Assembly: GCF_003334785.1 (NCBI RefSeq)
Contig: NZ_QOWV01000001.1
DNA length: 64,000 nt
From: Escherichia coli
GTDB taxonomy: Bacteria > Pseudomonadota > Gammaproteobacteria > Enterobacterales > Enterobacteriaceae
Direction: 5' to 3' (one strand)
This document shows positions 24,993 through 25,396 of the stretch, one piece after another. The position numbers and the translations under genes were made by a program. Numbering within the stretch: position 1 is the first letter of the stretch; each line of letters opens with the position of its first letter. Under the pieces are notes generated by a model. That model searched no databases and was not told the DNA's origin. It saw only the letters and a program-made list of their open reading frames with translations.

Positions 24993-25165
24993 GGTTGCCA
25001 TTATTACTCAACATCTCCATTTCCGCTGTCCATGTTGTCATGGTTCACAGTACCGCACATCGGCATTCGATGTGACGGAGCGAAACCCTTTGGGCGCTAA
25101 GTGTATTTTTTGTAAATCGACGATGATCACCTTTGATAACGTCGCGCTGCAAATACGCACTGACC

Positions 25166-25396
25166 ATGCGCCGCTGGATTTCACAAAATAATATCAGGCT
25201 CCCTCGTGGAGCCTTTTTTATATCTGCCTTATTTTTCTTCAACGCTGTATGTATAGTAAGCGATAACCTGTTGATTATTGAATCTTTCGGGGAGATGGCT
25301 TATAACATTTCTTACCTGACCAGGGTACCGGGAACCAACACCTTACTGGCGTGTTGCTGTCTTTTAAGACCAGAAGAGGTTAACAGTGAATATTGA
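25166..25396 (+). CDS. ymcE: small membrane protein YmcE (76 aa)
   Basis: MRRWISQNNIRLPRGAFFISALFFFNAVCIVSDNLL... recognised as YmcE; start trimmed within ORF 25133..25396. Confidence 0.7.
   Translation: MRRWISQNNIRLPRGAFFISALFFFNAVCIVSDNLLIIESFGEMAYNISYLTRVPGTNTLLACCCLLRPEEVNSEY

Follow-up and report, generated by a model that had tools for sequence, protein, structure and literature searches.

The question raised by this locus is whether the frame that runs on immediately behind cspG in Escherichia coli is a gene at all and, if so, from which codon it is translated and whether its translation depends on that of cspG. The window, that is, the whole stretch of 64,000 nucleotides analysed here, carries the cspG coding sequence on its plus strand at 24780-24992 (annotated, 70 aa, WP_000066490.1, stop codon TAA at 24990-24992). 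The codons behind the cspG stop are GTT GCC ATT ATT ACT CAA CAT CTC CAT TTC CGC TGT CCA TGT TGT and so on, and in the frame of interest they read VAIITQHLHFRCPCCHGSQYRTSAFDVTERNPLGAKCIFCKSTMITFDNVALQIRTDHAPLDFTK, as the initial annotation had given it. That annotation had stated that ATG and GTG are missing between the cspG stop and the first cysteine, and reading the sequence we found neither of them in this interval, nor a TTG. It had described the frame as running through the cspG stop; the frame is not that of cspG, the two being offset by one base, and the first base of the cspG stop lies 13 nt upstream of the ATT at 25003. The frame is actually open from the stop codon at 24913-24915 to the TAA at 25189-25191, and inside cspG it contains three TTG codons (24931, 24943 and 24979) and one GTG (24958), none of which had been mentioned. 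Thus, the statement on the missing start codon holds behind the cspG stop, but not for the frame as a whole, and a cross-species comparison is therefore needed to exclude the upstream codons.

Regarding its identity, the frame is a real gene that was annotated before, and so it is not new. RefSeq places ymcF at 25003-25191 on the plus strand (62 aa, 189 nt including the TAA at 25189-25191, WP_071524879.1), with 10 nt separating its ATT from the cspG stop, and the same gene bears the locus tag b4723 in K-12 MG1655, where the product is named "cold shock small protein YmcF"; the guess that the frame was possibly the annotated ymcF was right. A region of 751 nt is 100% identical to K-12 at the annotated ymcF coordinates. 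By megablast, the region 24700-25450 was present in 5,417 of 5,426 complete E. coli genomes, and the whole of it in 5,394. The genes annotated under these matches are cspG, ymcF (as 'cold shock small protein YmcF' or 'cold-shock protein'), ymcE and gnsA, and the RefSeq start of ymcF is ATT in the 12 E. coli records among the matches listed as well as in MG1655. Furthermore, the Pfam family YmcF-like (PF23641) matches the protein over its full length, from the ATT codon on (E 2.1e-49, model positions 1-62 of 62). Within this YmcF/YnfQ family ymcF is a plain member and no variant, nothing setting it apart from the others. Its paralogue in the Qin prophage, ynfQ (b4724), likewise encodes 62 aa, lies 10 nt behind cspI and starts with ATT, and the two proteins share about 66% identity.

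The length of the frame says little about whether it is coding. From the base composition of the window, a given frame has a probability of 0.019 of remaining open over 86 codons and of 0.058 over 62 codons, and nearby ORFs of 45-87 aa are numerous on both strands, so open frames of this size arise readily by chance. It is conservation, not length, that sets ymcF apart from such frames when the related sequences are compared. A search of 5.8 billion proteins returned 137 homologues, most of them 62 aa long; those named by organism are almost all from Enterobacteriaceae, and many are titled 'cold shock small protein YmcF'. Among 73 enterobacterial copies of equal length the synonymous difference is saturated (pS = 0.78), and pN/pS is 0.11 in the core (residues 5-45) and 0.59 in the C-terminal tail. 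The residues C9, C12, C34 and C37 are cysteines in 79 of 79 loci while their codons alternate synonymously between TGT and TGC; the test of cysteine codon conservation and synonymous pattern proposed in the initial annotation thus came out positive. In 43 sequences C9, P10, C12, Q16, R18, S20, G31, A32, I35, F36, C37, K38 and M41 are invariant, and YmcF carries the family motif, [FLM][RK] followed by CPxC.GSQYR.S.FD...NP.GAKCIFCK.

The family is a narrow one, because only 41 clusters at E ≤ 0.001 came out when its profile was run against 1.84 billion cluster representatives. No remote family with a functional lead was found there, and the distant clusters that were read keep the motif of the YmcF family itself.

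Taken on these data, ymcF is clearly protein-coding. The fallback of the initial annotation, namely that the stretch might be simply non-coding, would make it a 3' untranslated region of cspG in which the ORF and the cysteine pattern arose by chance. The ease with which ORFs of this length appear would suit such a reading, as would the weak match of a Salmonella sRNA family, STnc220, to the 3' end. However, a non-coding 3' UTR is ruled out by the low pN/pS together with the cysteines kept through synonymous changes in all 79 loci, which amount to strong purifying selection on the protein frame, and a dedicated Pfam family with a full-length match and 137 homologues points in the same direction; we attach practically no probability to it.

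In order to locate the start codon we used 80 loci, one genome per species, anchored on the HFRCP motif, from which the start-codon counts cover 36 loci with an adjacent csp gene and 43 others. In the 36 loci where an intact csp gene of 70 aa ends 12-13 nt upstream, the codon aligned with 25003 is ATT in 33 and ATC in 3, and never ATG. In the 43 loci with any other upstream context it is ATG in 31, ATT in 8, ACG in 3 and TAC in 1; the three ACG loci have an ATG three codons upstream and the TAC locus has one a codon downstream. Klebsiella, Raoultella, Enterobacter, Leclercia and Lelliottia are among those with ATG at the aligned codon. Codon 0 encodes isoleucine in all 36 csp-adjacent loci and the constraint goes on downstream of it, whereas each of the codons −1 to −3 encodes 5-8 different amino acids in the same loci. 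A stop codon followed by GG (TAAGG or TGAGG) lies 8 nt upstream of the start in 36 of 36 csp-adjacent loci, which in the window corresponds to the Shine-Dalgarno-like AAGG at 24991-24994 (plus strand, read from the sequence), overlapping the cspG stop 8 nt before the ATT. Within E. coli two exact junction haplotypes of 61 nt cover 4,974 of 5,426 genomes and both have ATT at 25003; 1,217 genomes have the K-12 version (ATT ATT) and 3,757 a version with GTT ATT. Therefore, it is the second ATT, at 25003, that is conserved and not the first, at 25000.

The ATT at 25003-25005 is thus well supported as the translation start of ymcF: it is the start of the RefSeq coding sequence, it is where PF23641 begins and it aligns with the ATG of relatives that have no csp. 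The initial annotation had supposed a non-canonical start near 25000, and the cross-species data back the annotated ATT. The identity of the gene, its coding status and the position of its start codon are established by the data above.

Two other ways of expressing the frame would place its beginning within cspG. Translation might start from one of the TTG or GTG codons in the 3' end of that gene (24931, 24943, 24958 or 24979), giving a protein of 70-86 aa that overlaps CspG; such in-frame codons do exist in K-12, and annotated lengths of 70-72 aa are found in some database entries for other genera. Nevertheless, conservation begins at codon 0, with the residues before it unconstrained and the Pfam model opening there, and in 12 of the 36 csp-adjacent loci the stretch from the upstream in-frame stop to Cys9 lacks ATG, GTG and TTG in this frame (seven of them are Kosakonia and close relatives, in which the csp TAA lies in frame at −12 and the gap is 9 nt). 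Moreover, 16 of the csp-adjacent relatives have in-frame stops 12-30 nt upstream, the csp-less relatives carry ATG at the aligned codon, and the paralogue ynfQ of the same genome has an in-frame stop at −24, which leaves ATT as its only candidate start. On all these results the upstream starts were rejected, and a longer form is very improbable. We give still less credit to the idea that the frame yields nothing but a C-terminal extension of CspG, by a +1 frameshift or by readthrough of the stop. The Kosakonia-type csp TAA, which is in the ymcF frame 12 nt upstream, and the csp frame of Citrobacter sedlakii, which runs open into ymcF, could be cited for it, but the position of the csp stop varies (−13 in most loci, −12 in seven), and since csp and ymcF do not keep one relative frame from genus to genus, such a fusion is unlikely. 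Many species also have an in-frame stop of the ymcF frame within the last csp codons, and many relatives have a plain ATG and no csp nearby.

The distribution of start codons is associated with the presence of csp. ATG was found at the aligned codon in none of the 36 csp-adjacent loci versus 31 of the 43 others (Fisher p = 2.6e-12, a value that ignores shared ancestry). Some of the instances appear to be independent: C. sedlakii, whose csp frame is disrupted, has ATG, whereas the other Citrobacter with an adjacent csp have ATT. The Klebsiella oxytoca group and Raoultella retain a recognisable, decayed csp 3' end and start with ATG, and in Enterobacter, Leclercia and Lelliottia an unrelated leader with AGGAG precedes the ATG. 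Judged by eye from the classes of upstream sequence, the independent changes of context number perhaps 3-8.

Some particular loci deserve description. In C. sedlakii (L026, about 1255-1689) a deletion close to the 3' end of csp takes the csp stop out of frame, which produces a potential Csp-YmcF fusion ORF of about 130 aa. In Citrobacter braakii two copies of the ymcF family lie on the same contig about 3.5 kb apart (L021 and L089), one of them after an intact csp and with ATT, the other after a decayed csp remnant and with ATG. The ATT codons in the group of other contexts come from diverse situations. One locus (L013) is csp-adjacent but its contig is cut, and another (L036) has a csp with a premature stop. 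Two loci (L047 and L075, about 1481-1508) have an ORF of 8 codons, MKKG(Y/H)YYY, ending over the start, and a further one (L082, about 1458-1490) has an ORF of 10 codons, MFLDFCVIAH, that ends in TAAGG at −13; these mini-ORFs mimic the geometry of the csp stop where an adjacent csp is absent. In the two Atlantibacter loci (L064 and L086) the ATT is followed directly by ATG, and Pseudescherichia vulneris (L070) has ATT and no upstream ORF.

The pattern of start codons and contexts fits translational coupling to csp but does not prove it. In its strong form the claim would be that AUU or AUC is kept only 12-13 nt behind a csp stop and gives way to AUG whenever this setting is lost, the start working through reinitiation; we hold this as a tentative proposal, somewhat short of probable. 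Termination-reinitiation is a general mechanism for coupling cistrons, and ymcF shares with such cistrons a short distance from stop to start (10 nt), a Shine-Dalgarno sequence lying over the upstream stop and a weak start codon; the difference is that for ymcF a dependence on upstream translation is suggested by the cross-species association. Other E. coli genes also start at AUU, namely infC and pcnB, and their weak initiation is sensitive to IF3; in infC the AUU serves the autoregulation of IF3 on a stand-alone start site. In contrast, the AUU of ymcF follows a very highly translated gene, 10 nt behind the stop of that gene, and in the YmcF family AUU is replaced by AUG where csp is absent, which suggests a dependence on upstream translation.

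On the other hand, the AUU of ymcF might be initiated independently by the 30S subunit on its own Shine-Dalgarno sequence and uncoupled from cspG, the weak codon keeping expression low or sensitive to IF3 as in infC. An AAGG or GAGG is present 8 nt upstream in all csp-adjacent loci, and Ps. vulneris keeps its ATT with no upstream ORF whatsoever, so AUU can persist without coupling. A conserved RNA structure that would tie cspG translation to the exposure of the ymcF start was not found either: the fold of the single sequence is no better than that of shuffled ones (z = −0.67), and the consensus structure of 23 species has an energy of −1.09 kcal/mol, with almost no structure. We rejected on these values a structure hiding the ymcF start as a conserved feature, and the lack of a conserved hairpin linking the start to cspG translation speaks for independent initiation. 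However, ATT or ATC in 36 of 36 csp-adjacent loci, with ATG dominant where csp is absent or broken, is hard to reconcile with it; C. sedlakii and Klebsiella/Raoultella are independent cases in which only the upstream context changed, and the overlap of the stop with the Shine-Dalgarno sequence means that a terminating ribosome sits on it. Wholly uncoupled initiation thus seems to us rather unlikely. As to the narrower question of whether the weak AUU is used mainly by ribosomes finishing csp or is entered independently, the comparison leaves the two about evenly balanced. In a literature search of limited extent we found no published account of start codons that change with csp adjacency in this way, and this link may be the sole new element reported here.

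Regarding the transcript, the Rfam family of the cspA thermoregulator (RF01766) matches the cspG mRNA, 5' UTR and coding sequence, at 24624-25046 on the plus strand (159.3 bits, gathering score 78, model positions 1-428 of 428), and the 3' end of this match runs into the start of ymcF. Between cspG and ymcF our scan detected nothing that resembles a terminator. An intrinsic terminator, AGGCTCC-CTCGT-GGAGCCT plus a T-run, lies at 25196-25221 on the plus strand, 5 nt after the ymcF stop, and has a stem of 7 bp with 5 G-C pairs. Published RNA-seq tables group ymcF with cspG and ynfQ with cspI, and in one of them ynfQ is labelled 'cold shock induced'. Because there is no intervening terminator, a hairpin follows ymcF, RF01766 covers the junction and the RNA-seq tables group the two genes, cspG and ymcF very probably form one cold-shock transcript. 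The cold induction of YmcF itself is putative, resting on database names and the table entry for ynfQ. Both ymcF and ynfQ are said to come from a cold-shock ribosome-profiling study that appeared in 2018 (by Zhang and co-workers, in Mol Cell).

Two further features touch this 3' end. The annotated ymcE (76 aa, 25166-25396) begins inside ymcF and spans the terminator at 25196-25221; its expression from the cspG promoter would need readthrough of the terminator, or else its annotation may be doubtful. A Salmonella 'sRNA' family of Rfam, STnc220, covers about 43 nt at the end of the Salmonella ymcF orthologue together with its terminator (L003, 1647-1725, 105.8 bits), and in E. coli its match to 25149-25229 of the window is weak, at 34 bits, below the gathering score. 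This family may simply correspond to a stable 3' end of the mRNA that carries csp and ymcF, or to an sRNA derived from that end.

The initial annotation had also compared the cysteine arrangement with a zinc ribbon. Two knuckles, of CxxC or CPxC type, supply four putative ligands in 79 of 79 loci. The first one, C9-P-C11-C12, is encoded at 25027-25038 and reads CPCC, with C9 and C12 as the conserved CPxC pair and C9, P10 and C12 invariant; the second one, C34-I-F-C37, is encoded at 25102-25113 within the conserved GAKCIFCK motif, both on the plus strand. C11, the middle cysteine of CPCC, is lost in distant members, so the putative ligand set is C9, C12, C34 and C37. AlphaFold2 with an alignment of 43 sequences gave a pLDDT of about 90 for residues 11-40, whereas an alignment of 23 sequences had led to an unusable model (mean pLDDT 60). 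The best fold matches of the predicted structure are the zinc ribbons of TFIIE-alpha and TFIIB, weak and non-significant ones, and a search of solved structures by sequence gave no match below E 0.035. The comparison thus gained some ground, the pairs being invariant or nearly so and the only fold matches, weak as they are, being zinc ribbons. On the predicted model a zinc-ribbon fold class is plausible for YmcF, and its core (residues 5-45), with CPxC and CxxC, most likely forms a small and generic zinc ribbon. Like the zinc ribbons of TFIIE-alpha, TFIIB, TFIIS and ribosomal proteins, YmcF has two CxxC motifs separated by about 21 residues, an interval in which short beta strands are predicted.

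The YnfU/ECs_2282 family (NF047912), also found in Qin, is another small prophage-borne protein with two CxxC pairs, as YmcF. Homology between them was rejected, NF047912 scoring 17.4 bits against a cut-off of 37 and hhalign giving a probability of 2%. Searches for other roles returned no YmcF match in PADLOC (defence systems) and only noise in PHROGs (phage families, E ≥ 0.038).

The same gene order occurs in phages. Lambdoid prophages and phages have csp, a ymcF-like gene, an ORF of 76 aa and a gene of the gnsA/B family, in this order, in the interval from the lysis genes to the terminase, and this csp-ymcF-like-gns cassette is present in Qin, where it includes cspI-ynfQ, and in HannyBb, mEp460, 2H10 and Tritos (for example at 2278-3338 in L006/L007, 7610-8668 in L008 and 2775-3838 in L090). 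Since the four genes stand in the same order, the chromosomal cspG-ymcF-ymcE-gnsA block is a paralogue of the phage moron cassette. In the phage records H13-H19 the ynfQ-like ORF is mostly unannotated (for example at 3001-3186 in L090), and in one of them an ORF on the opposite strand is annotated instead. The missing annotation is probably due to gene callers that do not allow an ATT start.

Two points on names and records should be mentioned. VanOrsdel et al. 2018 described under the name "YnfQ" a different protein of 37 aa, located between ydfJ and ydfK. That protein is now annotated as ynfT (L008, 2891-3004), and the name ynfQ now designates the ymcF paralogue after cspI; because the name has moved from one gene to the other, the literature on ynfQ is confusing. 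In addition, the csp-ymcF locus in a record labelled Chryseobacterium sp. 18061 (L065) is almost the same as the one in Citrobacter sp. 18056, which belongs to the same study, and the Bacteroidota name of the record is likely to come from contamination of the assembly or from mislabelling.

Thus, we can now suggest how the locus would work, and we have considerable confidence in the joint account in which ymcF is the second cistron of the cspG mRNA, starts at the AUU at 25003, probably encodes a zinc-ribbon core and may be translated in a way linked to csp. The cspG-ymcF cold-shock mRNA would carry ymcF as its second cistron, encoding a protein of 62 residues, and would end at the hairpin terminator at 25196-25221. 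Translation of ymcF would begin at AUU 25003 by means of the AAGG that overlaps the cspG UAA. We infer that this AUU would be served mainly by ribosomes that have just left cspG, either by termination-reinitiation or by local delivery of ribosomes. The synthesis of YmcF would then require translation of cspG and would yield far less protein than that of CspG, while relatives without an upstream csp would have turned to AUG and a stronger Shine-Dalgarno sequence of their own. As a speculation on its role, YmcF might be a zinc ribbon with RNA, the ribosome or another protein as its binding partner, working together with Csp proteins in the cold.

These results are worth taking into account in genome annotation, as gene callers limited to ATG, GTG and TTG miss ymcF. 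Very few E. coli proteins are annotated as starting at AUU, and two of them are YmcF and YnfQ, both putative members of the cold-shock regulon. The way in which the start codon follows csp adjacency is also a cheap and testable handle on weak starts in coupled cistrons. If the proposal on reinitiation is true, this family would provide a natural non-canonical start that has evolved repeatedly, and both the synthesis of YmcF and its stoichiometry would be tied to the translation of Csp in the cold.
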